Shown piece by piece: positions 6,084-31,412 of a DNA stretch of 32,000 bases (within the stretch, counting starts at the first letter, position 1; each line of letters starts with the position of its first letter). A model generated the notes under the pieces. The model did not search any database, was not told the DNA's origin, and saw only the letters and a list, made by a program, of their open reading frames with translations. The DNA comes from Dickeya solani IPO 2222 (GTDB lineage: Bacteria > Pseudomonadota > Gammaproteobacteria > Enterobacterales > Enterobacteriaceae). The DNA is taken from positions 3,930,001 through 3,962,000 of the forward strand of contig NZ_CP015137.1 of assembly GCF_001644705.1 (NCBI RefSeq), read 5' to 3'. A program made the translations under genes and the position numbers.

Positions 6084-7109
6084 ATGTCACTGAAACAGAT
6101 TGCAAAAACGCTGGGGCTGTCGGTCACTACTGTCAGTCGGGCGCTGAACGGCTACGATGACGTGGCGGCCGAGACACGCCTGCGGGTGGAAGACGAGGCG
6201 CGACGTCTTGGCTATCGCCCTAACACCTTTGCCCGGCGCCTGAAAATGGGCCGTATTGATGCGGTTGGGCTGGTGTTCCCGTTGCAGCCTGCGCCGCTCA
6301 GCAATACCACCTTTATGGAAATGGTGGCGGAGATCAGCCATGAATTGTCGAAGCAGGAGATCGATCTGCTGTTGATCGCCGACGAGGAGCAGGCTGACCA
6401 TCCGGCGTTTTTGCGCATGATTGAAAGCCGCCGGGTGGATGCGCTGATTGTCGCGCATACCCTGCAACAAGATTCTCGCCTGCAATATCTGCAATCGATC
6501 CGCTTTCCGTTTCTGGCGCTCGGGCGCAGCGACCTGCCGACGCCCTATGCCTGGTTCGATTTCGACAATCAGGCCGGTGCCGCGCTCGCCACCCGTAACC
6601 TGATCGCGCTCGGCCACCGTCACATCGCCTTCCTTGGCGAACACCATCCTCAATCATTTATCGCCCAGCGCCGCGCCGGTTATCTGGATGCACTGGCCGC
6701 CGCCGGTATCGCCCGGCGTGATGAGCTGTTGCGTCAGATAGCGCCATCGCGCCGGGAAGGATACCAAACCACCTTGCAGTGGCTGGCACTGCCGCAGCCG
6801 CCCACCGCCATCGTCGTTGACGGCAGTACGCAAGGCGAGGGGGCAGCGCTGGCGTTGCGCGATAGCGGGCGCTTACAGGGCGAGCAGGCGGTATCGCTGA
6901 TCGTCTATGACGGCCTGCCGGCCGACTCGCTGGTGGAGACACCGGTCACCGCCATTACGCAGGCGACTCGCGTGGAGGTGGGGCAGCAGATCGCCGATAT
7001 GGTGTTTCGCCTGCTGGCGGGAGACGCGCCGGCGTCGTTGCAGGCGTTGTGGCAACCGCAACTGCGTGCCGGACAGACCGATAACCCGCCGCCGGCACAG
7101 GCCGGATAG
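6084..7109 (+). CDS. rafR: LacI-family repressor of the raffinose operon
   Basis: 341 aa. The N-terminal HTH is MSLKQIAKTLGLSVTTVSRALNGYDDVAAETRLRVEDEARRLGYRPN. The motifs AWFDFDNQAGA...LIALGHRHIAFLGE are close to E. coli plasmid RafR as I remember it. The gene lies directly upstream of rafA and rafB, with palindromic operators between. Confidence 0.85.
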   Translation: MSLKQIAKTLGLSVTTVSRALNGYDDVAAETRLRVEDEARRLGYRPNTFARRLKMGRIDAVGLVFPLQPAPLSNTTFMEMVAEISHELSKQEIDLLLIADEEQADHPAFLRMIESRRVDALIVAHTLQQDSRLQYLQSIRFPFLALGRSDLPTPYAWFDFDNQAGAALATRNLIALGHRHIAFLGEHHPQSFIAQRRAGYLDALAAAGIARRDELLRQIAPSRREGYQTTLQWLALPQPPTAIVVDGSTQGEGAALALRDSGRLQGEQAVSLIVYDGLPADSLVETPVTAITQATRVEVGQQIADMVFRLLAGDAPASLQALWQPQLRAGQTDNPPPAQAG

Positions 7110-7172
7110 CCGCCGCCACTGGCATGCGCATGCCATCGATCTCATCGTTCGTTTTTTAACCCGATCACAAAA

Positions 7173-7207
7173 CCCAAACGTTTCGGTTCTAATCCGAAAC
7201 GTTTCGG
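7173..7207. promoter_or_regulatory. Two tandem LacI-type operators (putative RafR O1 and O2)
   Basis: O1 (7173-7186) is cccaaac|gtttcgg, 13/14 palindromic. O2 (7194-7207) is ccgaaac|gtttcgg, a perfect 14-bp palindrome that extends to 18/20 over aatccgaaacgtttcggaat. Their centres are 21 bp apart, two helical turns, and lie 40-70 bp upstream of rafA. Confidence 0.65.
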
Positions 7208-7248
7208 AATACAAATAACCTCATCACCCATCATTCAGGAGGATGAGG

Positions 7249-18424: not shown

Positions 18425-18922
18425 GCCGTCAATCCACTTTCAGGTGTTATAGCCTTCCCCTGGCGCTATGTCGCTGTCGGCCTTTGCTGCGCTTTGGCAG
18501 CAGCGGGTCACGCGTAGAGCCGGTATGATACATCGTTATAGATAAAAGGTATGAAAAAAGCCTGTTTAGCGTTGTTTCTCTTCTATTATTCTATTTCTGA
18601 CAATCCGTTACGAGCAAGAAGACGACTATGAGGTAGTGTGTCCTTTTGTTATTCCGGTGCAGAATGATACCCGGCTGTCAGGGCAACCGCGTGACAACCG
18701 TGTGACAACGGCGGGGAGAGCGCGCAACAGGCGTCGGGGCCATCAGTGTCAGGGCGGGCCAGGCATGTCGGAACCGCTAAACCCAGTCCGGCGCTGGCCT
18801 GCTCCCGGTCGCATCGGTATGTGTGGCGATGTGATAAAAAAGGACGGTCGGGATAGGGGATGGCAGGGAAGATATGGCGTGGATTATCGCTTCAACGGGC
18901 ATCCGGGTGTATCGCCGATAGG

Positions 18923-18978
18923 CGTCGCACTATGATCGTCGCATTATGACCGTCGCACTATGACCGTCACACTATGAT
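18923..18978. repeat. 4 x 14-bp head-to-tail tandem repeat (consensus CGTCGCACTATGAC)
   Basis: Read directly from the sequence: cgtcgcactatgat / cgtcgcattatgac / cgtcgcactatgac / cgtcacactatgat. The array is non-coding and lies about 500 bp upstream of the diguanylate cyclase start. Confidence 0.85.
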
Positions 18979-19123
18979 TACGGATCGCTGTACTACGCCC
19001 GCCGTACGGTTTGATGGTTTTCAAGCGTGTCACCGTGATACCGGGCATTAACTTTTGCTCACATTAATTGTTCCGGCAATAAACACACCGTAATGATAAT
19101 CATCAGGTCGCCAGCGGTCCGGC

Positions 19124-19168
19124 TGACGACTTGTTTCTGATGACGACTTGTTTCTGATGACTACTTGT
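19124..19168. repeat. 2.6 x 17-bp tandem repeat (TGACGACTTGTTTCTGA)
   Basis: Read directly from the sequence: two perfect copies (19124-19140 and 19141-19157) plus a partial third copy, tgactacttgt. The array lies about 110 bp downstream of the ABC permease stop. Confidence 0.85.
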
Positions 19169-19279
19169 GCAGCCCAGAGGCGCGCCTGTGGCACAACCGT
19201 TGAACCATACCCAACCAGTAAATAGACCATACCACCGCGGCACATATGCAGCAAAAGACGTCCGAAGGCATGACACGTG

Positions 19280-20866
19280 TCAGTGGACGCGCCAGGCGGT
19301 CAGACGCCGTTCCGCCAGCGTGATGAGCCGATAAAACAGCGTGCTGACCAAGGCTATCAGCAGCACGCCGGCGATCACCCGTTCCGACTGGAACAGTTGT
19401 TGGGCGCGGATCATCATGCTGCCAACGCCGTCGCCGGAGGAGATGAAGTATTCCGCGCCGATGGCGCCGACCCAGGCGTGCATCAGCGACAACCGTAGCC
19501 CGGAAAATAGCGCAGGCAGCATCGCAGGCAGCACCAGCCACCGCAGCCGCTGTCGTGCGCTGAGGCGCAACACGCGCGCGGTTTCCAGCAGCGACGGCGG
19601 CAGATGGCGAACGCCCTGATAGCTAGCCAGCAGCGCCGGGAAAAACGCCGCCAGCGCGATGAACACCACTTTGGCGCTCTCTTCCAGCCCGAACCAGGCG
19701 GTGAGCAGCGGCAACCAGGCGAACAGCGCGACGCTGCGCAGGGCGGAGAGCAGCGGCGTCAGCAGACGATCGGCCACACGGCTGCGACCCAGCAGGCCGC
19801 CCAGCAGGCAACCCAGACCGGCTCCCAGCGCGAACCCCGCCAGCGTGCGGGACAGGCTGGCGCTCAGCGCGGAGGTCAGTTCCCCGCTGCCCAATCCGGC
19901 CAGCAGGGCGGTCACCACCTCACGAGGCGCAGGCAGAAACGCGGCATGCACCCATTGCCGATCCGTGGCAAGTTGCCAGAGCAGGCACAATAGCGCGGGC
20001 AGGATCCAGCCCGCCAGCGCGTGCCAGGCGGCGTGCGGCGTCGGGCTTTCGTGACTCAGCACCGGCGCGGGCCAGAAAATCCAGCGCCGTTCCAGCCGTT
20101 GCAGCGCCTGCTCGCCCGCCAGACCGAACGCGCCAATCACCAGAATGCACACCAACACCAGATCCAGCATAAACAGCTGGCGGCTTTGCACCATCAGGTA
20201 ACCCAGCCCTTCGCTGGACGCCAGCAATTCCACCGCGATCAACGACACCCAGCCTTGCGAGAACGCCAGTCGCGTGCCGGTCATCACGTACGGCAGCATG
20301 GCGGGGATCACCAGCCGACGCAGCCGGGTCGGCCAGGGCAGGCGCAGCGTGCGCGCCATCTCGTAGAGTGTCTGCGGCGTCTGGCGGATGCCGGCGCAGG
20401 TACACAGCGTGACCGGCACCGTCACCGCCTTGATCAGCACCACCAGTTTCAGCGCTTCGCCGATACCCAGCGCCAGCATCAACAGCGGGATCCAGGCCAG
20501 CGTCGGGATTTGCGCCAGCACGTTGAACAGCGGCATGCCGAGCCGGTCCAGCGTGCGACTAAGGCCGAACAGCACGCCGAGCGTCAGACCGAGCGCAATA
20601 CCGCCAGCCAGCCCGATCGCCAGCCGGGCAAGGCTAACCAGCAACTGGGGCGCCAGCTCCTGGGGAATGAAGTCGCGGGCGCTGTCCGCCACCGTGGCGG
20701 GGGAAGGCAGAATTTGTTCCGACATCCAGTCGTAATGGCTGGTTAACCACCAGCCGCACACCAGCAGCAGCGGCATCAGCAGTGCGCTGCACGCCGCCGA
20801 TAGCGGGGCGAACGACCACGGGCGCGGCGGGTTCAGCGTCAGTTTGGGCATCATCGACATCATCAT
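19280..20866 (-). CDS. Fused tandem ABC-transporter permease (two SsuC/TauC/NrtB-type transmembrane domains in one chain)
   Basis: 528 aa with an obvious internal duplication. Half 1 contains ...LYEMARTLRLPWPTRLRRLVIPAMLPYVMTGTRLAFSQGWVSLIAVELL.... Half 2 contains ...LLETARVLRLSARQRLRWLVLPAMLPALFSGLRLSLMHAWVGAIGAEYF.... These are two EAA-loop regions. The start lies 12 bp after the exbD stop. Confidence 0.85.
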   Translation of the reverse strand: MMMSMMPKLTLNPPRPWSFAPLSAACSALLMPLLLVCGWWLTSHYDWMSEQILPSPATVADSARDFIPQELAPQLLVSLARLAIGLAGGIALGLTLGVLFGLSRTLDRLGMPLFNVLAQIPTLAWIPLLMLALGIGEALKLVVLIKAVTVPVTLCTCAGIRQTPQTLYEMARTLRLPWPTRLRRLVIPAMLPYVMTGTRLAFSQGWVSLIAVELLASSEGLGYLMVQSRQLFMLDLVLVCILVIGAFGLAGEQALQRLERRWIFWPAPVLSHESPTPHAAWHALAGWILPALLCLLWQLATDRQWVHAAFLPAPREVVTALLAGLGSGELTSALSASLSRTLAGFALGAGLGCLLGGLLGRSRVADRLLTPLLSALRSVALFAWLPLLTAWFGLEESAKVVFIALAAFFPALLASYQGVRHLPPSLLETARVLRLSARQRLRWLVLPAMLPALFSGLRLSLMHAWVGAIGAEYFISSGDGVGSMMIRAQQLFQSERVIAGVLLIALVSTLFYRLITLAERRLTAWRVH

Positions 20867-20878
20867 GGCGCGCCCGGG

Positions 20879-21280
20879 TCACTTACGGGTTAGCAGCGAC
20901 AAACGGGTGATGCCCGCTTGTTCCAGATCGACCAGCAGCGCGGCCACCGCGCCATAATTAGCGGCGTCTTCCGCCTGCACCTGCACCACCAGCTCCGGAT
21001 TGGCCGCTTTAGCCTGTTGCAGGCGCGCCGTTAGCGCCTCGCGGGGCAGGGCTTCTTTGTCGATAAACAACTGCTGCGACGCATCAAGGCTGATCACCAG
21101 CGGACGCGGCGAATCGGCCGGCGCCACCGCCGCCGTTTTGGGCAGGCGAATCGGGATACTGTTGGTCAGCATCGGCGCGGTGACGATAAACACCACCAGC
21201 AGCACCAGCATCACGTCCACCAGCGGGGTGATGTTCATTTCGCTCATCACCTCGTCATTGTCGCGGGAAGCAAACGCCAT
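20879..21280 (-). CDS. exbD: ExbD/TolR-family Ton-system protein
   Basis: 133 aa. The sequence MSEMNITPLVDVMLVLLVVFIVTAP is the canonical ExbD N-terminal TM segment, including the conserved Asp. The start lies 2 bp after the exbB stop. Confidence 0.9.
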   Translation of the reverse strand: MAFASRDNDEVMSEMNITPLVDVMLVLLVVFIVTAPMLTNSIPIRLPKTAAVAPADSPRPLVISLDASQQLFIDKEALPREALTARLQQAKAANPELVVQVQAEDAANYGAVAALLVDLEQAGITRLSLLTRK

Positions 21281-21282
21281 GA

Positions 21283-21981
21283 TTACACCACCTCCCGGAT
21301 CGTCTGCACCGCATACGGCGCGGCCGGTTGCTCGGTGGCAAGGTGGAACTCCTGCGCCTGCGCCACGCTATAAATGTCATGGGCAAAGTCGTCCATGTCG
21401 GCCACTTCCAGCTTCAGTTGGCGCAGAAAATAGTTGTAAATCAGCACCGCGGGCACGGCCACCGCGATGCCGATGCCGGTGGCGATCAACGCATTGCCGA
21501 TAGGACCGGCGACGGTGTCCAGGCTGGCGGAGCCCGATTGGCCGATCGTCTGCAACGCCGCCATGATGCCCCACACGGTGCCAAACAGGCCGATGAACGG
21601 CGACGTGGTGCCGATGCTGGCCAGCAACGCCAGGCCGTTTTCCAGCGAGCGGCGCTCGCGCTGGATTTGCTGCTGCAACGCCCGTTCTACCCGGTCTTGC
21701 AGATGCGCGGTCGGCGTGATGCGGTCTTTCACCCGTTCCAGCGTCAGCTGTGTGGCGCGCGCCAGGTTCGCCAGCGCGCCGGGATGGGCGACATCGCGCA
21801 GCGCCGCGTCGATGTTTTCCTGCTGCCAGAACAGTTGGCGGAACTGCTGATTACGCCGCCGCTGGCGGGCGTACTGCGCCAGCTTGAGCAGCCCGATGGA
21901 CCAGGTGACGAGCGAGAAAAACAGCAACAACAGGATTACGCCCCCTTCCGGGGACAGCAGAGTGATATGTTCGAGCGTCAT
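21283..21981 (-). CDS. exbB: MotA/TolQ/ExbB proton-channel protein
   Basis: 232 aa with three TM helices. The family signature is LASIGTTSPFIGLFGTVWGIM...GPIGNALIATGIGIAVAVPAVLIYNYF. Confidence 0.9.
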   Translation of the reverse strand: MTLEHITLLSPEGGVILLLLFFSLVTWSIGLLKLAQYARQRRRNQQFRQLFWQQENIDAALRDVAHPGALANLARATQLTLERVKDRITPTAHLQDRVERALQQQIQRERRSLENGLALLASIGTTSPFIGLFGTVWGIMAALQTIGQSGSASLDTVAGPIGNALIATGIGIAVAVPAVLIYNYFLRQLKLEVADMDDFAHDIYSVAQAQEFHLATEQPAAPYAVQTIREVV

Positions 21982-21994
21982 AATAGGGATGCCT

Positions 21995-22843
21995 CTATGA
22001 GTTCAGGGTGAAATCGACAGGAACCACGACCCAGCCGCTTTCCGGCTGGTCGCCCCGGCGGGCCGGTACGAACGACCAGTGCTGTACCGCCTCGCGGGCG
22101 GCGTCGTCCAACGTTGGGTATCCGCTGGAGCGTTGCAGACGAATGGTTTGCACTTTGCCGTCAGGCCGCACCTGGACATTGAGCAACACCGTGCCTTCCC
22201 AGCCGCGGTTAATCGCCACATCCGGGTAAGCGGGTGGTGGGTTGCGCAGATAGGCGGCGCTGGCGGAAGGCGGCGTCACCGGTGCGGCTGCCGTCGGCGG
22301 TGCGGCGGGGGCGGTCGCAGCGGTATTGACCGGCGTAGTCTGAGGCGCTACCGGCTGGCGCGGCGTCGCCGGTTTTTTCGCTATCGGTTTGACCGGTTTG
22401 GGCATCTTCACCTGCGCGGTTTCATGGACGCGCGTTGGTTGCGGCGGCGTCAGCGCCTGCTCATCCACCGGCGGTTCGACAGCAGGCGGCGGTTCCGGCG
22501 GCATGGTTTGGGACGGTATTGCTTCGGATGGTATTGCTTCGGACGGTATTACTTCAGCCGGCGTAGCCTCAGCCGGTGCGGCGGCGAATTCGATGATTAC
22601 CGGCAACGGGCGCGGCGGCACCAGCGTCGGCGACGACGGACGCAGCGCCAGCGGCGCCAGTACTGCGGCGTGCAGCACCAGCGCCAGCGTGAGGGTGAGC
22701 CAGGTTTCCGACCGTCGCCCGGACAAGGCGGCCGGCCAGACCGGCGCAATAGCGCGTGCGGCAGCCGGTCGGGTAGACGCGCCGCTGCCCGATGTGTCCG
22801 GCCAGTTGACGCTGGCAGCCCCGGCGTACAGGGGATGAGTCAT
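21995..22843 (-). CDS. tonB: TonB-family energy transducer
   Basis: The track ORF begins at a TTG (22861). ATG 22843 (MTHPLYAG...) lies 10 nt after GAGGAG and is preferred. There is a single TM helix with a His (LTLALVLHAAVLAPL). A long Pro/Ala-rich spacer follows. The C-terminal TonB domain is AAYLRNPPPAYPDVAINRGWEGTVLLNVQVRPDGKV...GYPTLDDAAREAV. Confidence 0.85.
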   Translation of the reverse strand: MTHPLYAGAASVNWPDTSGSGASTRPAAARAIAPVWPAALSGRRSETWLTLTLALVLHAAVLAPLALRPSSPTLVPPRPLPVIIEFAAAPAEATPAEVIPSEAIPSEAIPSQTMPPEPPPAVEPPVDEQALTPPQPTRVHETAQVKMPKPVKPIAKKPATPRQPVAPQTTPVNTAATAPAAPPTAAAPVTPPSASAAYLRNPPPAYPDVAINRGWEGTVLLNVQVRPDGKVQTIRLQRSSGYPTLDDAAREAVQHWSFVPARRGDQPESGWVVVPVDFTLNS

Positions 22844-23220
22844 GATGGCGTTACTCCTCAAGAAAGCTGGCGCAGCGAATATCCGCGTGGCTGAGCATCG
22901 GTTGGATCGGGTTTTAGCGAAAATACCGGACCATAAAATAGATAACGATTGACCAGGAAAGATAAATAACGGTTTTGTCGATTCTTAATCATTTGCTTTT
23001 GATGTCAAATGCCATATCTCGCTATCAATATGCTGTCTTTTATCAATTGAATCGGCTGAAATTTCTGTGGCGTCAGCCGTTATTTATTATATTCCCCCCG
23101 GTCAGATGGCATTTACCCTAATCGTCGGCGGGAAAAAAAGGCTAATGCATCATCGGTATAGTTTTTTTGCGTTTGCTGCATGAGGCGGGCAACGCCGATA
23201 TTTCCTGTTTTAGTTAATTC

Positions 23221-23245
23221 ATAAAAATACAAATGCCATTTTTAT
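23221..23245. promoter_or_regulatory. Interrupted dyad ATAAAAAT-N9-ATTTTTAT enclosing the AAATGCCAT motif (candidate LysR-type regulator site)
   Basis: Read directly from the sequence: an 8-bp perfect inverted repeat with a 9-bp spacer, about 100 bp upstream of the binding-protein ATG. The shape fits the T-N11-A style of LysR boxes. The assignment of the binder is inference. Confidence 0.35.
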
Positions 23246-23346
23246 ATTAGCCAGTTTATTCCCCACCCTTTAAATGTTGCCGGAGCAAACACAACGATAG
23301 GTCCGCACAATCCGATCCGATGATGACTTTTCACGCTGGGGGAAAT

Positions 23347-24360
23347 ATGAAGCAAATGGGAAAACACTGGCTACTGTCCGGCCTGCTGGCCTTAACGGCG
23401 TTGTGGCACGTGGGAGCACAGGCGACCAGCGCTACCGAGATTCGTATTGCGGTGTCGGATATCGGCGCCGGTTCTCAACCGAGCGGCGGCGGGCTGGTTG
23501 ATCTGATTTTCAGTCAGAAACGGCTGGAACGGGAGTTCGCCCGCGACGGCATTAGCGTTCGCTGGCTGTTTATCAAAGGCGCCGGACCGGTGATTAACGA
23601 AGGCTTCGCCAACCATCAGATCGATATGGCGTATCTGGGCGATTTGGCCAGCATCATCGGCCGTTCGCGTGGGTTGGACTCGGTGGTGATTGGCGCGGCG
23701 GCGCGCGGGGTTAATCATTATCTGGCGGTGTCCCGCGGTTCGCCGATCCACCGGCTGGAGGATTTGAAAGGCAAGCGGGTGGGGCTGTTTCGCGGCACCG
23801 CGGCGGAACTGTCGTTCGTCACCGCGCTGCGCTCCCGCGGGCTGAGCGAGTCCGACATGAAAATCATTAATCTGGACTTCGCGGCCGCCAGCGCCGCGTT
23901 GGCCGCCGGTCAGATTGACGCCACCTGGGGCGGCAGCAACGCGCTGGCGCTGCGCGATAAAGGGCTGGCGGATATCGCGGTATCAACCCGTGATTTGCAG
24001 GGGGCGGGCCAGTTAACCGGGCTGATCCTGGTCGACGGCAATTTCGCCCGCCAGAATCAGGATGTGTTGGCGCGTATTATCAAGATGCAGAAAGAGGCCT
24101 CCACGTGGGCCAGCCAACCTGCCAATCGGGATAATTATATTCAGCTGCTGGCGACGCAATCCGGTTATCCGGAAAAATTTCTGCGCGAAGATTTGGACGG
24201 TATGCCGCCGTTATCCCAATTATTATCGCCGGAGTTGGACCCCGCGTTTGTCGCTATTCTCAAACAGTCCGTTGCGCTGGCGTATGAGGCGAAATTAATC
24301 CGTAAATCCTTTTCGGTGGAGGAATGGCTTGATAGCCAATTTTTAAAACATCAGCGCTGA
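23347..24360 (+). CDS. Periplasmic ABC substrate-binding protein, SsuA/TauA/NMT1 (sulfonate/sulfate-ester/nitrate) family
   Basis: The start is moved to ATG 23347, giving the signal peptide MKQMGKHWLLSGLLALTALWHVGAQA. The product is 337 aa. It has a two-lobe type-II SBP pattern (EIRIAV..., DMAYLGD..., LKGKRVGLFRGTAAE...). It is divergent from the operon that contains the matching permease family. Confidence 0.8.
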   Translation: MKQMGKHWLLSGLLALTALWHVGAQATSATEIRIAVSDIGAGSQPSGGGLVDLIFSQKRLEREFARDGISVRWLFIKGAGPVINEGFANHQIDMAYLGDLASIIGRSRGLDSVVIGAAARGVNHYLAVSRGSPIHRLEDLKGKRVGLFRGTAAELSFVTALRSRGLSESDMKIINLDFAAASAALAAGQIDATWGGSNALALRDKGLADIAVSTRDLQGAGQLTGLILVDGNFARQNQDVLARIIKMQKEASTWASQPANRDNYIQLLATQSGYPEKFLREDLDGMPPLSQLLSPELDPAFVAILKQSVALAYEAKLIRKSFSVEEWLDSQFLKHQR

Positions 24361-24450
24361 TTTGTCTTTTATTCATTATTTATTCTCTCCGCCTTATTTA
24401 TTGTCGCGTGGGCGCGGCAAGGGCGGCTTTATTTAAAAACTGGGGTGGAT

Positions 24451-26757
24451 ATGGGTAATAAAAAAACGATTTTCTGGCGATACCCGGTAGTGATTGGCAG
24501 CGTGCTGGCGATGCAAGGGCTGGCGCAGGCGGCCGATACGCCGACGACAGCGGCCAACGCCGCGGCGACGCCGGATGCCGCGACACGTGCTGAGGCCACG
24601 GCAGCCCCCGCGCAGGCGGTACGGCTCAAGCGGGTACAGGTTAACGCGCAGCGTCGGCAAGCGCAGCAGCAAACCAGCCTGGCGTCGGTGGTGGACGGTA
24701 AGGAACTGGAGCAGGATCGACTCTACCGCTTTGAAGACCTGTCGCAGGCGGTCACCGGTGTGGATATCGCTGCAACGGATGCGCTGGATACCCGGGTGAC
24801 CATTCGCGGCATCGGCGACGGCGGCGGCAGCGAAATCAACATCGGCATGCCAAGCAGCGTCGGGTTGTTTCTGGACGGTGTCTACCTGTCTCGCCCCGGC
24901 ATGTTGTCCAACGACCTGCTGGATATCGATGCGGTCAGCGTGCTGAAGGGGCCGCAGGGTACGCTGTACGGCTTTAACACCACCGGCGGGGCGGTGGATA
25001 TCCGCAGCCGCAGGCCGACGTTCAAACCGGAAGTGTCGCTGGAGCAGTCGTTCGGCCAGCGCGGCTACGTTCAGTCCAAACTGATGGCGTCCGGCGCGCT
25101 CAGCGACAACTGGGCCGGGCGCATCAACCTGTCGCACACCGAAAAGGGCGGCTACGTCTACAACGTACAAAACGGCCACCAACTGGGCGGCAGCAACAGT
25201 AACGGCGTGCGCGGTCAGTTGCTGTACCAGCCGGATGATGGCTTTAGTCTGCGTATCATCGGCGATTACAGCGAAGCGACCAGCTACCCGGTGATGTCGC
25301 TGGTGGACAGCTACCCGGTCGGCGGCGTGGATCAGTTCCGGACCCGCGCGGCGGCGGTCGGGGCGCGAGTGGTGGACGGCCGTCAGGTGGCGCTGGACGA
25401 CGAAACCAAAAACCGCGTCGCGCAGGGTGGCGGCTCGGTGGAAGCCAACTGGCGGCTGCGCAACGGCTATACCCTCAATTCGTTGTCATCGCTGCGTTAT
25501 TTCCGCTTTCTGCCAGGTAGCGCCGATGGACTGAGCATTCCGCTGTATCAGGACAGCGGCGCGGACGCCCGCGACCGCACCTGGGGGCAGCGCTTCTGGG
25601 TGGATTCGCCCAAAGGCGGCCTGGCGGATTATTCGTTCGGGGTGGATTATTGGGGCGAGAATCTGGATACCTTCGCGCATGACCATTACTACAACAACGC
25701 GCGCGTCACCCGCTGGTATGGCAACACCAGCAACACCGGCAAATTCGTACAACGCTTCGGTTCGCTGGAAGATACGGTGTATTCGGCTTTTGCCCGCAGC
25801 ACCTGGCATCTGGGCGACCGGTTCGACCTGACCACCGGCGTGCGGGAAACCTACGAGAAGAAAACCGGCACCTTCCGCCGCATCAACAAAAACGATTTCG
25901 ACTCCGGCGATCTGTCGCAGAGTTATCACCTGCCGTCTGCCACCGTCAGCCTTAACTGGTACGCCACGCCCAATGTGACGCCGTACCTGACGCTGGCCTA
26001 CGGCGAAAAGGCCGGCGGCCTCAACATCTCTTCCGGGGCGGCGAAGCAGGCGGGCGTCGATAGCCTGTATATCAAGCCGGAGAAAACCCGCGCCGTGGAG
26101 CTGGGGGTGAAAACCCACTGGCTGCAACGCCGGGTGGAGTGGAACACTGCGCTGTTCTGGAATGAAGTCAGCGAGTTTCAGACCACCGCCTACGACGAAG
26201 AAACGCTGAGTAGCTATCTGGTGAACGCCGGTAAATTCCGCTCGCGCGGCGTGGAATCGCAACTGGCGCTACGTCCGGTCGATGGGCTGACGGTGAGCCT
26301 TAATGGCACCTTGCTGGACGCCAGCTATCTGGATTTCAAGAACGCCAGGTGCCCGCCGGAAGTGACGCTGGCGGCTAACCCGCCCGCCTCCTGCGATCTC
26401 AGCGGCGAGCGGGTATTCAGTTCGCCGAAGCTGACCTACAACGCCCGCATCCGCTATGAGTGGCAAGCCTTCAATAACCTCCAGGCGTTTGTGGCCGGTC
26501 GCTGGGCCTGGCGCAGTTGGGCCTACGGCACGGTGGATAACTCCGACTTTACCCGCATTCCGGCCTACGGCGTGCTCAACCTGTCCACCGGGGTGAGCGG
26601 CAAACAGGACGGGCATGCCTGGCGCGCCACCCTGTGGCTGAATAACGCGCTGGATAAGACTTACTACCGCACCGTCAAGTCGGGCGATTACGGGTCGGCG
26701 TATGGCGTGCTGGGCGAACCGCGCACGCTGGGGATCACGCTGGGTTATGACTTCTAA
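24451..26757 (+). CDS. TonB-dependent outer-membrane receptor
   Basis: The track ORF begins at GTG 24445; ATG 24451 is preferred. The signal peptide ends at ...LAQA. A low-complexity Ala/Thr/Pro linker follows. The TonB-box/plug start is VRLKRVQVNAQRRQ, and the plug motif is VLKGPQGTLYGFNTTGGAVDI. The protein ends in LGITLGYDF, with a terminal aromatic residue. The product is 768 aa. There is no N-terminal signalling (STN) extension. Confidence 0.9.
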   Translation: MGNKKTIFWRYPVVIGSVLAMQGLAQAADTPTTAANAAATPDAATRAEATAAPAQAVRLKRVQVNAQRRQAQQQTSLASVVDGKELEQDRLYRFEDLSQAVTGVDIAATDALDTRVTIRGIGDGGGSEINIGMPSSVGLFLDGVYLSRPGMLSNDLLDIDAVSVLKGPQGTLYGFNTTGGAVDIRSRRPTFKPEVSLEQSFGQRGYVQSKLMASGALSDNWAGRINLSHTEKGGYVYNVQNGHQLGGSNSNGVRGQLLYQPDDGFSLRIIGDYSEATSYPVMSLVDSYPVGGVDQFRTRAAAVGARVVDGRQVALDDETKNRVAQGGGSVEANWRLRNGYTLNSLSSLRYFRFLPGSADGLSIPLYQDSGADARDRTWGQRFWVDSPKGGLADYSFGVDYWGENLDTFAHDHYYNNARVTRWYGNTSNTGKFVQRFGSLEDTVYSAFARSTWHLGDRFDLTTGVRETYEKKTGTFRRINKNDFDSGDLSQSYHLPSATVSLNWYATPNVTPYLTLAYGEKAGGLNISSGAAKQAGVDSLYIKPEKTRAVELGVKTHWLQRRVEWNTALFWNEVSEFQTTAYDEETLSSYLVNAGKFRSRGVESQLALRPVDGLTVSLNGTLLDASYLDFKNARCPPEVTLAANPPASCDLSGERVFSSPKLTYNARIRYEWQAFNNLQAFVAGRWAWRSWAYGTVDNSDFTRIPAYGVLNLSTGVSGKQDGHAWRATLWLNNALDKTYYRTVKSGDYGSAYGVLGEPRTLGITLGYDF

Positions 26758-26767
26758 GGATACGCCG

Positions 26768-29536
26768 ATGCCACTGCATGATACCTCGCGCCGTCGTTTC
26801 ATCCGTAACGGCGCCTTGCTGGCGCTGTCGGCGCCGCTGTGGAACCGGGCGCTGGCGGCGCGCACGCCGGGTGGTGACGAGCCTGCCGACGCTGCGCCGA
26901 CGGTCCGGCTGAACTGGCTGGAACGGCAACCGCCCGCCAGCTTCGGCGGCGTGACCTGGGGCGTGCCCTGGCCGCAGGGGCAGGTGCCCGCCGACAGCGG
27001 GTTCGTGCTGGGCGAAGACGGCCAGGCGGATCGCGCGTTGCAGAACTGGCCGCTGGCCTACTGGCCGGACGGCTCGCTGAAGTGGTCGGCCCATGCACTC
27101 GGCGCTGAGCGCACGCCCGGTCACGGGCTGTCGCTGCGCCCCGTGCCGGCGACTGCCGCAACGGGGGACGCCATCGTCACCGAAACGGCGCAACACTGGG
27201 TGGTGGATACCGGCCGGCTGCGCTGTCAGGTGCCGAAAAACGGCGAGCGTTTGATCGGTGAACTGTGGCAGGACGGTCGGCTGGCGCTCGGCAACGGTCG
27301 GCTGGTGTTGCAGATCCAGTCCGGTGAAGGGACGGACTGGCCACTGACGGTGGAGACGTTGCAGGGGCAGGCCACGCAGGTCACGCTGGAGCAGAACGGG
27401 CCGCAGCGCGCGGTCATCGCACTGCGTGGGGTGCATCGCCATGCCGCGTCGGGTGGCGTCACTCGTCTGCCGTTTGTGGTGCGGCTCTATTTCTACGCCG
27501 GCTCGGCGTCGCTGCGCCTGCTGCACACCATTATCTACGACGGCGACGAGCAGCAAACCTTCATCAAAGGGCTGGGAGTGGCGTTTGATGCGCCGCAGCA
27601 GGGCGAGCTGCACGACCGCCATGTGCGGTTCACCTCGGCGCAGGGCGGCCTGTTTCGGGAAGCGGTACGCGGCCTGACCGGCCTGCGACGCGATCCGGGC
27701 GAGGCGGTTGTCGCCGCGCAACTGGCCGGAAAGGCTACGCCGCCGGTCGCGCAGTTTCCCCCGGCGGTGGGCAAGCGGCTGGACTACATTCCGGCGTTCG
27801 GCAGTTACCGGCTGACCCAGCATCACCCCGACGGCTACCAGATCCACAAACGCACCGCCGCCGGGCAGGGCTGGCTGCTGTCCGCCACCGGGCAGCGTGC
27901 CTCCGGCACCGGCTATCTGGGGTCACCCACCGGCGGGGTGGCGTTCGGCATCCGCCATTTCTGGCAGAGCTATCCGGCCTGTCTGGAGATTCAGCGGGCG
28001 CATACCGATTTAGCCACGATCACGCTGTGGCTGTGGTCGCCGTACGCGGAACCGATGGATCTGCGCTTCTACCACGACGGCATGGGGCAGGCGAGTTTCG
28101 AACAGCAGCGCGAGGCGCTGGAGATCACCTACGAGGATTACGAACCGGGCTTCGCCACCCCGGAGGGCGTCGCCCGCACCAGCGAACTGTTTCTTGATGT
28201 GCTGCCCGCCACGCCGGACAGCGACACGCTGCTGGCGATGGCTCGGCGCCATCAGCAACCGCCGTTGCTGGTGGCCGACGGCGCCGATTTGCAGCGCGCC
28301 GGCGCGTTTGGTCCGGTATGGTCGCCGGCTACGCCGGGGCATCAGCCGCAACCGGCGCTGGATGCGCAACTGGCGTGGTATTTCGACTTCTATCAGCAGG
28401 AGGTGGAACAGCGGAAATGGTACGGCTTCTGGGATTTCGGCGACGTGATGCACACCTACGATGGCGATCGCCATGTCTGGCGTTATGACGTGGGCGGCTA
28501 CGCCTGGGATAACTCGGAGCTGAGCACCGATTTGTGGCTATGGTACTACTTTCTGCGTAGCGGCCGGGCGGACGTGTTCCGCATGGCGGAAGCCATGACT
28601 CGCCACACCGGCGAGGTGGATGTGCACCATGCCGGCCGCTTCCAGCCGCTTGGGTCGCGCCACAACGTGCGTCACTGGGGCGACAGCGCCAAGCAGTTGC
28701 GCATTTCCACCGTGGCGAACCGGCGTTTTCTGTATTACCTGACCGCGGATGAACGTATCGGCGAGCTGATGGATGAGCAGGTGGAGGCGCTGCGCACCCT
28801 GCAGCGGGTGATGCCGGGCCGCAAGATCGGCCAGCCACCGCCGGCCGACGAGCGGCTGGTCAGCCTCTATTTCGGCACCGACTGGGGCGCGGTGGCGGCA
28901 GCCTGGCTGACCGCCTGGGAACGGCGGCATGATACGGCGATACGCGACCGTCTGCTCAACAGTATGCGGTCGATTGCGGCCCAGCCGCACGGCTTCTTCA
29001 CCGGGCTGGCGGAGATGGACCCCGACACCGGCACGTTCCAGCCGGCAGCGGTCGACCAACTCGTTATTTCGCATCTGAGTGCGGTGTTCGGGCTGGCGGA
29101 GGTGTGCGCCGAACTGTTGCAGGTACTGCCGGACCCGGCGTTCGAGCGCGCCTGGCTGGACTATTGCCGCCTGTACAACGACCCGAAGGCGTTGAGCGCG
29201 TTTGTCGGTCAGCCGGTGAAAAAGCGCAATCTGGTGCAGGGCCATGCCCGGCTGAGCGCCTTTGCCGGCTGGCGTCAGCACGACAAGGCGCTGACCCGGC
29301 GCGCCTGGCGCGAGTTTGTGGACGGCGAGGGCGGTATTGTCCACCCCAACCGGCGGGTACGACTGATAACGCCGCCCGCGGTGCTTTATCCGGTGAAAGA
29401 AGCGGAGATCGACTCGTCGATCGATCAACGTTCCGGCAGCACCGTCGTCACTAATCTGTCCACCAATGCGGTGGCGCAGTGGGGGCTGACCACCATCGCC
29501 ATGCTGGCGCTGGCGGGAGACGCACCGCCCAAATAG
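26768..29536 (+). CDS. Large Tat-exported protein of uncharacterised family (candidate periplasmic polysaccharide/conjugate-processing enzyme)
   Basis: The start is moved to ATG 26768, with AAGGA 7 nt upstream and 10 bp after the receptor stop. The twin-arginine leader is MPLHDTSRRRFIRNGALLALSAPLWNRALA. The product is 922 aa. A conspicuous aromatic/acidic block is present: WYGFWDFGDVMHTYDGDRHVWRYDVGGYAWDNSELSTDLWLWYYF...HTGEVDVHH...RHNVRHWGDS. I recognise no cofactor-binding Cys or His cluster that would otherwise explain the Tat routing. Confidence 0.85.
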   Translation: MPLHDTSRRRFIRNGALLALSAPLWNRALAARTPGGDEPADAAPTVRLNWLERQPPASFGGVTWGVPWPQGQVPADSGFVLGEDGQADRALQNWPLAYWPDGSLKWSAHALGAERTPGHGLSLRPVPATAATGDAIVTETAQHWVVDTGRLRCQVPKNGERLIGELWQDGRLALGNGRLVLQIQSGEGTDWPLTVETLQGQATQVTLEQNGPQRAVIALRGVHRHAASGGVTRLPFVVRLYFYAGSASLRLLHTIIYDGDEQQTFIKGLGVAFDAPQQGELHDRHVRFTSAQGGLFREAVRGLTGLRRDPGEAVVAAQLAGKATPPVAQFPPAVGKRLDYIPAFGSYRLTQHHPDGYQIHKRTAAGQGWLLSATGQRASGTGYLGSPTGGVAFGIRHFWQSYPACLEIQRAHTDLATITLWLWSPYAEPMDLRFYHDGMGQASFEQQREALEITYEDYEPGFATPEGVARTSELFLDVLPATPDSDTLLAMARRHQQPPLLVADGADLQRAGAFGPVWSPATPGHQPQPALDAQLAWYFDFYQQEVEQRKWYGFWDFGDVMHTYDGDRHVWRYDVGGYAWDNSELSTDLWLWYYFLRSGRADVFRMAEAMTRHTGEVDVHHAGRFQPLGSRHNVRHWGDSAKQLRISTVANRRFLYYLTADERIGELMDEQVEALRTLQRVMPGRKIGQPPPADERLVSLYFGTDWGAVAAAWLTAWERRHDTAIRDRLLNSMRSIAAQPHGFFTGLAEMDPDTGTFQPAAVDQLVISHLSAVFGLAEVCAELLQVLPDPAFERAWLDYCRLYNDPKALSAFVGQPVKKRNLVQGHARLSAFAGWRQHDKALTRRAWREFVDGEGGIVHPNRRVRLITPPAVLYPVKEAEIDSSIDQRSGSTVVTNLSTNAVAQWGLTTIAMLALAGDAPPK

Positions 29537-29627
29537 CGAGACTTCAGGCAACGACGGGCCAGATAGCGACAGGCCCGATAACGGCACAATCCGAATAATC
29601 GCGCCCGCTGCGGCGGGCTGCAACCGT

Positions 29628-29691
29628 ACATCATCACGACAGAACATCATCACAACAGAACATCACCACAACAGAACATCATCAGGACATG
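29628..29691 (+). repeat. 4 x 16-bp CA-rich tandem repeat ending 4 nt before a start codon
   Basis: Read directly from the sequence: acatcatcacgacaga / acatcatcacaacaga / acatcaccacaacaga / acatcatcaggacatg. The ATG of the next gene is at 29696. Confidence 0.85.
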
Positions 29692-29695
29692 ATCA

Positions 29696-30484
29696 ATGAC
29701 GGACACAGGCTATAGCGCACAGCGCACGGTTATGGAAAGCCACGCCGGTCAGGCGTGTACCGCCGCCACGGAAGGCGGCTTTCAACGGCAATCAGACGTC
29801 CACCAGGAATCAAACACCCACCAGGAGTCAAATGCCCACCGGGAATCAAATGCCCACCGGGAATCAAATGCCCATCAGTTCGCCCTGCAATGGGCGCAAT
29901 CCGCTGACGGAAAACCGTTGTGCTGGCGGGTGGAGCAGGAGGACCCGGCGCGCACCCGTATCGATATTGACGACCATACGCTGACGCTGGATACCGCTGC
30001 CGGGCTGACGGTGTGGCTCGACCAGCCGCTATCCGGCAGGTATCGCATCAGTTATCTGCGTGAAGTCTTGGTGCAGGGGCAGCCGAACGATCGGCTTTCC
30101 GATCTCAATCAATTTTGGGCGGCGCGGGACCCGGCCCGCGCGTCGCTGTTCACCCGCCACGGGGTGCTGGGCGAATACGATAATCTGGCGCTGTATTACG
30201 TTGGCATGGGCGGCAACTGGAACAGCACCACCCGTTTTCGCTACTACAACGGCCACGGCGAGCGGCAACTGCTGGGGGAGTTCACCGATGAAGCGCATCT
30301 GCTGCGCGCCGGGCAGCGTTATCGGGTGGCCATTGAGGTGGACAGCACCGAAACCCGTTTCCTGATCGATAACCAACTCTACTTTCGCGCCCACTATACC
30401 GAACCGCCGGCCAGCGGCTATTTCGGCTTGCGGACGGTATTTTCACGGCAGGCGATCAGCCAGTTCAGCGTCACACCGCTGTAG
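29696..30484 (+). CDS. YesU/DUF1961-like protein (concanavalin-type lectin/glucanase fold family) with a repetitive His/Glu/Ser/Asn N-terminal extension
   Basis: 262 aa. The C-terminal ~200 aa (LTVWLDQPLSGRYRISY...NQFWAARDP...LALYYVGMGGNWNSTTRFRYYNG...YRVAIEV...YFGLRT) resemble the B. subtilis YesU family as I remember it. There is no signal peptide. No internal Met exists between residue 13 and the domain, so the repeat region must be translated. Confidence 0.7.
   Translation: MTDTGYSAQRTVMESHAGQACTAATEGGFQRQSDVHQESNTHQESNAHRESNAHRESNAHQFALQWAQSADGKPLCWRVEQEDPARTRIDIDDHTLTLDTAAGLTVWLDQPLSGRYRISYLREVLVQGQPNDRLSDLNQFWAARDPARASLFTRHGVLGEYDNLALYYVGMGGNWNSTTRFRYYNGHGERQLLGEFTDEAHLLRAGQRYRVAIEVDSTETRFLIDNQLYFRAHYTEPPASGYFGLRTVFSRQAISQFSVTPL
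29801..29872 (+). repeat. 4 x 18-bp in-frame tandem repeat encoding (H-Q/R-E-S-N-T/A)x4
   Basis: Read directly from the sequence: caccaggaatcaaacacc / caccaggagtcaaatgcc / caccgggaatcaaatgcc / caccgggaatcaaatgcc. The last two copies are identical. Confidence 0.9.
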
Positions 30485-31412
30485 CGTCGGCGGCGCTGGC
30501 GCGATGCGGCGCCTGATCCACCTGCAAAAACATGGCGATCAGCCGCTGTGACAGCCACGACAGGCGGGAGTCGGCGCGGCTGACGATACCGTAATGGGTG
30601 TAAAACTCGTCGGTGTCGTCATCCAGCCCGGTGATTTTCAGCATGTGGATGCCATCCGGCGGCTGTTGTAACGGCCCGTGGCGATGATTGGTGGTACCGA
30701 TGGCGTCGGACTGGCGGATCACGTCCAGCAGGCTGTAGCCGTTTTCGCACTCAATGCTGGTGCGGATATCCTGCTGACCGCTCAGCCGCACCAGCGCCTG
30801 GCGCAGGTTGGGCGGGCGCACGGTGGCCGCCAGCGGATAGCTGAACAATTGCTCGACGCTGATTTCGTCAAACGTAGCCAGCGGATGCCCCTGACGACAG
30901 CAGAAGCCCCAGCGGTGCTGGCTCAGCGGCTGCACGTTGTAGCGGGCGTCCAGCTCGAAATGGCGGGTATCGGCGACGATAAAGGCAAGCTCTTCCGCCA
31001 TCAGTCGTTGGCCCAGCGCCTGCCAGTTATCGACCCGGAACACCAGCCGCACCCGCGGATACTGGCGGGAGAATTCGCCGATCACCTGCGGCATCAGCCA
31101 GGCCGCCGGCGCCGGGCCGCAGCCGAAATGTACCTCGCCGCTCTCTTTTTCGCTGAACTGCTCGATATCGTTGATTAAATCTTGCGCGTGGCGGGTGAGG
31201 CGGCGGGCGTGTTCCAGTACCAGCAGCCCTTTCTTGGTGGGTTCCAGATTATGGTGACGGTCGATCAGCCGCGCGCCCACGCTCTGTTCCAGCGACTGGA
31301 TGCTGCGGCTGAACGCCGACTGTGAAATGTTCATGGCCTGCGCCGCCGAAGTGAAATTTCGGTGCTCGATCAGCGCAATAAAGTGGCGTAACTGACGCAG
31401 GTCGATGTTCAT
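30471..31412 (-). CDS. LysR-family transcriptional regulator
   Basis: 313 aa. The N-terminal wHTH is MNIDLRQLRHFIALIEHRNFTSAAQAMNISQSAFSRSIQSLEQSVGARLIDR. A typical LysR substrate-binding domain follows. The 3' end overlaps the convergent YesU-like gene by 14 bp. Confidence 0.9.
   Translation of the reverse strand: MNIDLRQLRHFIALIEHRNFTSAAQAMNISQSAFSRSIQSLEQSVGARLIDRHHNLEPTKKGLLVLEHARRLTRHAQDLINDIEQFSEKESGEVHFGCGPAPAAWLMPQVIGEFSRQYPRVRLVFRVDNWQALGQRLMAEELAFIVADTRHFELDARYNVQPLSQHRWGFCCRQGHPLATFDEISVEQLFSYPLAATVRPPNLRQALVRLSGQQDIRTSIECENGYSLLDVIRQSDAIGTTNHRHGPLQQPPDGIHMLKITGLDDDTDEFYTHYGIVSRADSRLSWLSQRLIAMFLQVDQAPHRASAADATAV

Follow-up and report, generated by a model that had tools for sequence, protein, structure and literature searches.

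A predicted PL26 rhamnogalacturonan lyase gene, rhiF, clusters with TonB-dependent receptor, Ton complex and organosulfur-type transport genes in Dickeya solani

The window analysed here is a 32,000-nucleotide stretch of Dickeya solani IPO 2222 (RefSeq assembly GCF_001644705.1, contig NZ_CP015137.1, positions 3,930,001 to 3,962,000 of the forward strand), and coordinates are those of the window unless another locus is named. Between positions 19280 and 31412 it carries a gene cluster built around rhiF, the product of which is, by domain content and alignment, a full-length homologue of PL26 exo-rhamnogalacturonan lyases with that predicted activity. On balance, the rhiF locus is probably a LysR-controlled carbohydrate-utilisation locus that uses a TonB-dependent receptor (TBDR) for oligomers of the pectin backbone rhamnogalacturonan I (RG-I).

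The proposed pathway would start with extracellular RG-I fragments, which in Dickeya are presumably made by RhiE, a secreted PL4 lyase. The receptor would take them through the outer membrane with energy from the TonB-ExbB-ExbD complex of the locus. Periplasmic RhiF, working with a DUF6250 protein, would then take unsaturated galacturonosyl-rhamnose units off the reducing end. The DUF6250 protein has no signal peptide in gamma-proteobacteria and probably exits bound to RhiF by hitch-hiking on twin-arginine translocation (Tat). An SsuA-family substrate-binding protein (SBP) and a fused ATP-binding cassette (ABC) permease would move the anionic product over the inner membrane.

The enzyme family, the logic of TBDR loci and transport parts of the Ats/Sft type are each known, and rhiF has already been named. 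What is new is their combination in Enterobacterales: a private Ton motor, a nitrate/sulfonate/taurine-type ABC importer, PL26, DUF6250 and a dedicated LysR regulator. No paper characterising this combination was found, which agrees with an earlier sequence-only reading that knew of no characterised system of this composition. The same reading proposed a self-contained two-membrane route for a plant-derived anionic glycan, and the receptor, private Ton motor, periplasmic enzyme, SBP and permease fit that proposal.

RhiF and its DUF6250 partner

The features of the locus are as follows (aa, amino acids).

18425..19279, no strand: non-coding gap from the permease stop to the GGDEF gene; position of the ABC ATPase gene in other genera
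19280..20866, minus strand: fused ABC permease, 528 aa, with two BPD_transp_1 domains
20879..21280, minus strand: ExbD/TolR-family protein, 133 aa (PF02472, E = 7.6e-30)
21283..21981, minus strand: ExbB/TolQ-family proton channel, 232 aa (PF01618, E = 1.4e-34)
21995..22843, minus strand: TonB-family energy transducer, 282 aa (PF03544, E = 4.7e-22)
22844..23346, no strand: AT-rich divergent control region with a conserved block and a promoter-like site
23347..24360, plus strand: periplasmic SBP of the NMT1/SsuA family, 337 aa, with a Sec signal peptide (Pfam NMT1)
24451..26757, plus strand: TonB-dependent outer-membrane receptor, 768 aa, with Plug and TonB_dep_Rec barrel domains
26768..29536, plus strand: RhiF, Tat-exported PL26 exo-rhamnogalacturonan lyase homologue, 922 aa, with three PcRGLX Pfam domains
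29628..29684, no strand: 16-bp tandem repeat, 3.6 copies, in the rhiF-DUF6250 spacer (TRF score 100)
29696..30484, plus strand: DUF6250 protein, 262 aa, no signal peptide (PF19763, E = 2.7e-61)
30471..31412, minus strand: LysR-family regulator, 313 aa, with HTH_1 and LysR_substrate domains

The three Pfam domains of RhiF are nearly full length (PF19501, E = 5e-27; PF21345, E = 4.6e-142; PF21346, E = 1.4e-171). They give the protein the PL26 architecture of an N-terminal RIFT barrel, a central beta-sandwich and a C-terminal alpha/alpha toroid. In a phmmer comparison, residues 46-898 align with residues 8-895 of PDB entry 5xq3, the fungal rhamnogalacturonan lyase PcRGLX (E = 3.3e-220, 853 residues). 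The protein is approximately 50% identical to this fungal enzyme and to homologues in rhamnogalacturonan loci that contain PL11, GH105 and CE12 genes. PcRGLX from P. chrysogenum (PDB 5xq3, 5xqg, 5xqj and 5xqo) shares with RhiF the three-domain build, the end-to-end similarity and the tyrosine of an ITYED motif. Unlike PcRGLX, which is fungal, secreted and stand-alone, RhiF is bacterial, Tat-exported and paired with DUF6250 and a TonB-dependent receptor.

The sole difference between 5xqo and the wild-type protein is a change of ITYED to ITFED, and RhiF retains the tyrosine at position 455. This deposited Tyr-to-Phe substrate-complex variant points to a catalytic role for Tyr455. The residue is invariant across 25 diverse homologues from Proteobacteria, Bacteroidota, Actinomycetota and Verrucomicrobiota. 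Their alignment contains more than 150 invariant columns, which argues for a single conserved activity.

The sequence-only reading treated the 922-aa Tat protein as uncharacterised. This does not stand, since the protein belongs to a family with known structure and biochemistry, so that an enzyme of known type is present. The predicted Tat export is supported by the twin-arginine motif SRRRFIRNG at the RhiF N-terminus. Members of PL26 are described as exo-lyases that free unsaturated galacturonic acid-rhamnose from the reducing end of rhamnogalacturonan (PMC13501991). The gene is already listed as rhiF among the Dickeya "pectinasome" genes (PMC10319131; bioRxiv 10.1101/568105), and it is confined to Dickeya species that also carry rhiE (6/6 in the published table; PMC10319131). 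No biochemical or genetic study of rhiF was found in the literature.

Dickeya degrades rhamnogalacturonan through the rhiE-rhiT-rhiN pathway, and its PelX is a periplasmic exo-pectate lyase. RhiF would serve RG-I as a periplasmic exo-lyase in the way that PelX serves oligogalacturonides. It shares organism and polymer with rhiE-rhiT-rhiN, but rhiF sits in a separate locus without a KdgR box and with its own LysR regulator, receptor and Ton system.

The last plus-strand gene had been read as YesU/DUF1961-like. The YesU-like lectin fold is upheld by fold and profile comparison, but membership of DUF1961 is not, because the Pfam assignment is PF19763 (DUF6250) and not PF09224. An AlphaFold2 model built with database homologues (pLDDT 95.6) predicts a concanavalin A-like beta-sandwich. 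In Foldseek, the neighbours of this model are YesU (PDB 1oq1, TM-score 0.69), CBM66, L-type lectins and GH16. The hhalign comparison of DUF6250 with DUF1961 gives a probability of 96.7% (E = 3e-10). Searches of the DUF6250 sequence against the PDB, as a single sequence or as a profile, returned only noise, and the relatives emerged from fold comparison. By these fold and profile matches, DUF6250 is a cousin of YesU/DUF1961 outside that family. Literature searches on DUF6250 and PcRGLX returned nothing useful.

The pairing of DUF6250 with PL26 is widespread. In Oxalobacteraceae, DUF6250 is fused to the C-terminus of PL26. In many Bacteroidota loci the two genes adjoin, and the adjacency spans many phyla. 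Actinomycetota PL26 loci are without DUF6250, and some contain DUF1961 instead. It is the natural fusions that suggest a physical association of RhiF with DUF6250.

Export signals are distributed unevenly between the two families. A hydrophobic N-terminus is missing in 43 of the 44 closest DUF6250 homologues, which where named come from Dickeya, Brenneria, Pectobacterium and Pseudomonas. The more distant homologues, where named mostly from Bacteroidota, carry a Sec or lipoprotein signal in 64 of 76 cases. An RRx[FLIVM] twin-arginine motif is found on 111 of 120 PL26 homologues. The signal-less DUF6250 protein, the twin-arginine motif on PL26 and the natural fusions together suggest joint export of RhiF and DUF6250, already folded as a pair, via Tat in gamma-proteobacteria.

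A comparable pairing is known from the Bacillus subtilis yes operon for RG-I, which encodes the PL11 lyases YesW and YesX, the DUF1961 protein YesU (PDB 1oq1) and the YesOPQ importer, which uses the MsmX ATPase. The two loci share a rhamnogalacturonan lyase, a small concanavalin A-like protein and an ABC importer without a cognate ATPase gene. The B. subtilis operon differs in having PL11 rather than PL26, another SBP and permease family, a Gram-positive host and no receptor or Ton complex.

Within the D. solani DUF6250 gene, an in-frame 18-bp tandem repeat (29800-29878, 4.4 copies) encodes HQESNA/HRESNA hexapeptides and lengthens the N-terminus of the protein. Deposited Dickeya DUF6250 proteins are 232, 244 and 250 aa long, compared with 262 aa here, and the protein collection has no entry identical to the 262-aa sequence. 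Because these lengths differ, the repeat appears to be a length-polymorphic site. In three Dyadobacter loci (L011, L018 and L022, approximately 1800-3950), the DUF6250 gene lies approximately 7 kb from PL26 and directly beside a sulfatase gene, in a SusC/SusD locus. In L006, L007 and L083 (approximately 7800-9350), a SulP sulfate-transporter gene directly precedes PL26 and there are no glycoside hydrolases nearby.

Conservation of the cluster and the ABC ATPase gene

For the wider family, 80 genome loci were retrieved with the PL26 protein. In five Pectobacterium species every gene is present in the same order, at 47-77% identity. This arrangement is also found in Brenneria goodwinii, an Enterobacter sp. 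and two other Dickeya. The full ten-gene cluster, with an ABC ATPase gene, is present in Pectobacterium, Brenneria and Enterobacter. Because the arrangement recurs in these genera and in Dickeya, it is not due to chance. The linkage of the two divergent units, on which the sequence-only reading relied, is conserved in related genomes of four enterobacterial genera.

Outside the Enterobacterales, a smaller core is conserved. The order SBP-TBDR-PL26-DUF6250 is held from Dickeya to Pseudomonas, at 52-98% identity. The Pseudomonas/Stutzerimonas loci contain only these genes, together with the LysR gene in three of four. A divergent major facilitator superfamily (MFS) gene replaces the Ton/ABC operon in three of the Pseudomonas/Stutzerimonas loci, and tonB-exbB-exbD lies just downstream of the P. 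flavescens locus. The Ton/permease operon thus falls outside the invariant core, as it is missing from most Pseudomonas loci. Duganella-type loci contain an extracytoplasmic function (ECF) sigma factor, a receptor and a PL26::DUF6250 fusion, and have neither the MFS gene nor the Ton/ABC operon. In the beta-proteobacterial Uliginosibacterium, genes for a PL9-like lyase, DUF6250, a TBDR and PL26 lie opposite a NitT/TauT-type ATPase and a fused permease. The distance from receptor stop to PL26 start is 0-16 bp in all proteobacterial loci with adjacent gene calls, and this spacing suggests that the receptor and PL26 genes are co-transcribed.

The neighbours of PL26 point in one direction across phyla. 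A PL11 rhamnogalacturonan lyase recurs in 16 of the 80 loci. Other recurrent neighbours are GH88/105-type hydrolases, GDSL/CE12-like esterases, GH2, DUF2264, LacI regulators, SusC/SusD and DUF1961. Judged by this gene content, the cross-phylum neighbourhood of PL26 is a rhamnogalacturonan context.

No ABC ATPase is encoded anywhere in the window. When the orthologous ATPase of locus L086 was compared with the window by tblastn, no match was found at the limit of E = 10; in L001-L005 the same search gives matches of 64-67% identity directly after the permease. An ABC ATPase of 244-252 aa immediately follows the permease in Pectobacterium, Brenneria goodwinii and Enterobacter sp. 10-1, and ATPase genes are among the gene calls of L086 and L088. 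In the window and in two other Dickeya (L082 and L087), a GGDEF gene occupies this position and there is no detectable remnant. Presence in the loci of the other three genera and absence from three Dickeya mark the missing ATPase, on gene content, as a Dickeya-lineage deletion. The sequence-only description of the module as ATPase-less thus holds for this genome, but not as a feature of its design; that idea is rejected because all full-cluster copies outside Dickeya, including those of the sister genera, carry the ATPase.

The non-coding gap at 18425-19279 contains only short tandem repeats, with a 14-bp unit in 3.9 copies at 18923-18977 and a 17-bp unit in 2.6 copies at 19124-19168. Also in this gap, upstream of the GGDEF gene, is the site of the window that most resembles a Fur box (14/19, at 19089-19107).

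The ratio of nonsynonymous to synonymous substitution rates (dN/dS) of the permease is 0.21-0.30 within Dickeya and 0.06-0.10 within Pectobacterium at similar dS. For exbB, exbD and the permease it ranges from 0.06 to 0.30 across a Dickeya divergence of dS approximately 0.9-1.4. The Dickeya permease is therefore under purifying but relaxed selection, with an intact open reading frame (ORF). A pseudogene is rejected on the same grounds (intact ORF, dN/dS 0.2-0.3). To function, the Dickeya permease must presumably borrow an ATPase, for example SsuB or TauB, or else be partly redundant with RhiT.

These data bear on a reading in which the cluster is two unrelated adjoining units. The SBP-TBDR-PL26-DUF6250 unit would work, with RhiT or another carrier responsible for inner-membrane uptake; the Dickeya tonB-exbBD-permease operon would be left over from a formerly complete ABC system, in decay and without a part in the pathway. 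It would account for the deletion of the ATPase in all three Dickeya examined and for a permease dN/dS two to three times the Pectobacterium value, and it is consistent with the three Pseudomonas loci that have the MFS gene and the Duganella loci that have neither module. However, the permease, exbB, exbD and tonB ORFs are intact, the dN/dS of exbB, exbD and the permease stays at 0.06-0.30, and the divergent arrangement is kept in four enterobacterial genera. In addition, tonB-exbB-exbD sits next to the locus in P. flavescens, and the beta-proteobacterial TBDR-PL26 pair is also associated with a fused permease and ATPase. The reading deserves consideration but is unlikely.

Transport genes and the nature of the substrate

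The domain classes assigned from the sequence alone agree with Pfam and NCBIfam: an SsuC/TauC-type permease, a Ton trio, an SsuA-type SBP, a receptor and a LysR regulator. The best NCBIfam models of the permease are SaoP, SsuC, NtrB and TauC, all scoring under cut-off, and its name in the source annotation includes "sulfate ester permease". The tonB, exbB and exbD genes are contiguous and co-oriented and encode one TonB_C, one MotA_ExbB and one ExbD domain, respectively, as expected of a Ton complex. TonB has an N-terminal anchor with a histidine, a proline-rich spacer and a TonB_C domain. ExbB and ExbD score under the NCBIfam equivalog cut-offs of the Exb and Tol models alike. ExbD is syntenic across all Enterobacterales loci.

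The SBP scores 134.6 bits against the NCBIfam model SsuA_fam, under the cut-off of 163.5, and it matches SsuA in the PDB (3uif, E = 7e-36). In X. citri SsuA, the contacts to sulfonate are mostly main-chain NH groups. Relatives of the SBP at 58-93% identity are found only beside TBDR-PL26, and those at 37-42% in ordinary SBP-permease-ATPase loci. The receptor has a signal peptide and a plug and no N-terminal STN signalling domain. Its clade is narrow: relatives of at least 47% identity that carry an organism name all come from genera with PL26 loci.

Two more distant receptor relatives, each at 40% identity, were examined. The first lies in locus L171 of Pseudomonas silvicola (9001-13894), which contains an ECF sigma factor, FecR, the paralogous TBDR with an STN domain, a sulfatase and a formylglycine-generating enzyme (FGE); upstream are genes for a sulfite reductase and an SsuA-like SBP. 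The arrangement suggests a locus that scavenges sulfate esters through a receptor and signals across the envelope. The second (L172) is the Uliginosibacterium receptor beside the PL9-like, DUF6250 and PL26 genes. One of the ordinary SBP-permease-ATPase loci, L093 (1558-9997, metagenome contig Ga0209281_1000024), contains the closest free-standing relative of the ABC module together with LysR: a fused permease (48%), an ATPase, an SBP and a LysR gene (41%). These genes stand beside an arylsulfotransferase-thioredoxin gene, a gene for a MesX-type oxygenase and a MetE-like gene.

When PL26 loci are set aside, sulfatase/FGE or arylsulfotransferase genes adjoin the closest relatives of the receptor, SBP, permease and regulator. 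From these organosulfur neighbours we infer that the receptor, SBP, permease, ATPase and regulator were recruited from a sulfate-ester/sulfonate (Ats/Sft-like) lineage. Source annotations name a sulfate-ester binding protein, a sulfate-ester permease and an SdsB-like activator ("SDS degradation transcriptional activation protein"). In the ASAP annotation of D. dadantii 3937 the names are sftP, atsR and atsB (PMC4079955). The analogy with Pseudomonas ats/sft drawn from the sequence alone is apt at the level of lineage, given these shared names and organosulfur neighbours, while the defining desulfating enzymes are absent.

The AtsRBC/SftP/SftR genes of Pseudomonas form a sulfate-ester utilisation cluster. 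The Dickeya cluster resembles it at the family level in its SsuA-family SBP, large fused two-domain permease, TonB-dependent receptor and LysR activator. It differs in having no AtsA sulfatase, no AtsK dioxygenase and, in Dickeya, no AtsC-type ATPase. A Pfam scan found no Sulfatase or TauD domain in any cluster gene. Also unlike Ats/Sft, the cluster has its own tonB-exbBD, and a polysaccharide lyase and DUF6250 stand in the enzyme positions.

This likeness raises the possibility that the locus scavenges sulfur. Uptake of the Ats/Sft type would operate under sulfur limitation, with PL26 and DUF6250 replacing sulfatase and dioxygenase on a sulfated uronic-acid glycan or conjugate, and a sulfated product or sulfate would be imported. 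The SsuA/SsuC/TauC-like SBP and permease and the annotation names are consistent with this, as is the arylsulfotransferase-thioredoxin gene in L093; an arylsulfotransferase-type gene also lies approximately 8 kb from the Dickeya cluster. Further points in favour are the sulfatase and FGE genes that follow one 40% receptor relative near sulfite reductase, the Pseudomonas neighbours (luciferase-like (LLM) monooxygenases, two TauD-family genes and a second SsuA-like SBP), the sulfatase that adjoins DUF6250 in Dyadobacter and the SulP transporter beside PL26 in other loci. However, the Enterobacterales cluster contains no sulfatase, AtsK-type dioxygenase or monooxygenase. The similarity of PL26 to the fungal lyase and to its homologues in rhamnogalacturonan loci, with its many invariant columns, and the presence of the other 40% receptor relative with a PL9-like lyase, DUF6250 and PL26 argue against sulfur as the object of uptake. 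Land-plant walls are not known to contain sulfated rhamnogalacturonans in any major amount. Sulfur scavenging is thus an unlikely role. A more specific version is quite improbable: a sulfur or anion scavenging device in which the PL26 beta-elimination enzyme, with DUF6250 carried by RhiF via Tat hitch-hiking, would replace the Ats/Sft sulfatase on sulfated uronic-acid glycans or conjugates of the host.

Uptake of iron or another metal chelate, possibly pectin-bound metal, by the receptor and its private Ton complex is very improbable. The best NCBIfam subfamily of the receptor is the TonB-dependent siderophore receptor, its best PDB match is FyuA (pesticin/yersiniabactin), and one source annotation names it "pesticin receptor". 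The scores are far under cut-off (153 bits vs 223.5), and none of the eight best-scoring Fur sites falls in the divergent region, the sole 14/19 match being that near the GGDEF promoter, at 19089. The importer also differs in type from the FecCD/FhuD ABC systems for siderophores, and the receptor co-occurs strictly with a polysaccharide lyase. A siderophore receptor was rejected on the sub-cut-off scores, the missing Fur box and the type of ABC importer.

The assignment to RG-I oligomers is favoured by the PL26 identity of RhiF, the pectic neighbours across phyla, the coupling of the cluster, the partnership with DUF6250 and the co-occurrence of rhiF with rhiE. Loci for carbohydrate utilisation with TonB-dependent receptors (CUT loci) were reportedly described in Xanthomonas by Blanvillain et al. 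in 2007. Like these and the polysaccharide utilisation loci of Bacteroidota, the rhiF locus combines a receptor, a periplasmic or surface carbohydrate-active enzyme, an inner-membrane transporter and a regulator. All four gene classes are present and syntenic across genera, and the Bacteroidota PL26 homologues sit in SusC/SusD loci. Unlike CUT loci, the rhiF locus has an Enterobacterales host, a nitrate/sulfonate/taurine-type ABC importer rather than an MFS or sugar ABC transporter, and a Ton motor within the locus.

Several observations weigh against RG-I. The cluster contains no GH105 unsaturated rhamnogalacturonyl hydrolase, which would be the next step, and no other pectinase. Neither a KdgR box nor another pectinolysis-type operator was found among the eight best-scoring sites per motif. 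The SBP and permease belong to a family that normally handles small anions (sulfonates, sulfate esters, nitrate and taurine) and not disaccharides, and in the Pseudomonas loci the SBP has no permease of its own. Siderophore-type models and FyuA give the best scores for the receptor, and one of its two 40% relatives sits with a sulfatase and FGE. LLM monooxygenase, TauD and arylsulfotransferase genes recur near the Pseudomonas and Dickeya loci. In Dickeya, the ATPase is absent and permease constraint is relaxed two- to threefold. We know of no assay of the bacterial PL26 clade. A literature search combining rhamnogalacturonan, TonB-dependent, Pectobacterium and lyase returned nothing relevant.

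In Enterobacterales, pectin oligomers classically enter through KdgM-type porins. If the RG-I assignment is correct, soft-rot Enterobacterales would have an energised, receptor-mediated uptake of RG-I, unlike the porin-based uptake of oligogalacturonides. RhiF, an orphan "accessory pectinase", would gain a defined place in a pathway, and an organosulfur-type ABC importer and a TonB-dependent receptor would have been adapted to an acidic sugar. The locus would also open the widespread DUF6250/DUF1961 (YesU) proteins, the companions of rhamnogalacturonan lyases from Bacillus to Bacteroidota, to experiment for the first time. The loss of the Dickeya ATPase would be a natural experiment in the survival or decay of ABC systems without a motor. 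A machine-learning study of D. dadantii and P. carotovorum marked most cluster genes as likely host-interaction factors in the two species (PMC4079955), which makes an in planta phenotype plausible.

Control region and other content of the window

A conserved block lies upstream of the SBP gene at approximately 23137-23290, with the pattern CTAATGCAT-N7/8-ATAGTTTTTTT-N8/9-TGCAT ... TATATTAG ... TTTAAATGT. Dickeya, Pectobacterium, Brenneria and Enterobacter all retain this block, and it can still be recognised in Pseudomonas. The LysR gene is 66-98% identical and syntenic in the same four enterobacterial genera and in three of four Pseudomonas loci. This parallel conservation marks the block as a putative LysR operator and promoter, and LysR probably controls the cluster. 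On the other side of the region, a promoter-like TTGACA-16-AAGAAT at 23008-22981 faces tonB, and a GAGGAG Shine-Dalgarno sequence precedes the tonB ATG at 22843. A promoter and terminator scan gave counts no higher than those of shuffled sequence. In consensus scans of the window for KdgR, Fur and CRP, none of the eight best-scoring sites of each motif fell in the divergent region.

An ORF check of the window returned the nine ORFs of the cluster with the strands and coordinates given in the sequence-only reading. The spacing is also as described there. On the minus strand the gaps are 13 bp (tonB-exbB), 2 bp (exbB-exbD) and 12 bp (exbD-permease). On the plus strand they are 90 bp (SBP-receptor), 10 bp (receptor to the 922-aa ORF) and then 159 bp to the last gene, which is convergent with the LysR gene and overlaps it by 14 bp. 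The SBP gene is present as called, but its start is more likely at 23347 (337 aa, as in deposited Dickeya proteins) than at 23320.

The window contains no match to an Rfam RNA family, and megablast of the rhiF-DUF6250 region against plasmids found no match. In two other Dickeya (L082 15984-22769 and L087 16041-22769), the genes beyond the LysR gene encode a 2-oxoglutarate-Fe(II) (2OG-Fe(II)) oxygenase, an ABC ATPase and permease together with a MetQ-like lipoprotein, and an arylsulfotransferase-thioredoxin protein. This Dickeya neighbourhood, with its sulfur flavour, lies outside the window.

The other genes of the window are formate-dehydrogenase-like, raffinose-type, peptidase, oxidoreductase, DsbC-like and GGDEF genes. 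A raffinose/melibiose-type unit on the plus strand (6084-10712) consists of a LacI-family regulator, a GH36 alpha-galactosidase and a LacY-family symporter. The GH36 and symporter ORFs, as called mechanically, overlap by approximately 80 bp, and the symporter start is probably farther downstream. A 325-aa ORF on the minus strand (10833-11810) contains a Peptidase_C1 (papain-family cysteine protease) domain (E = 3.6e-9), to our knowledge an unusual family on an enterobacterial chromosome.

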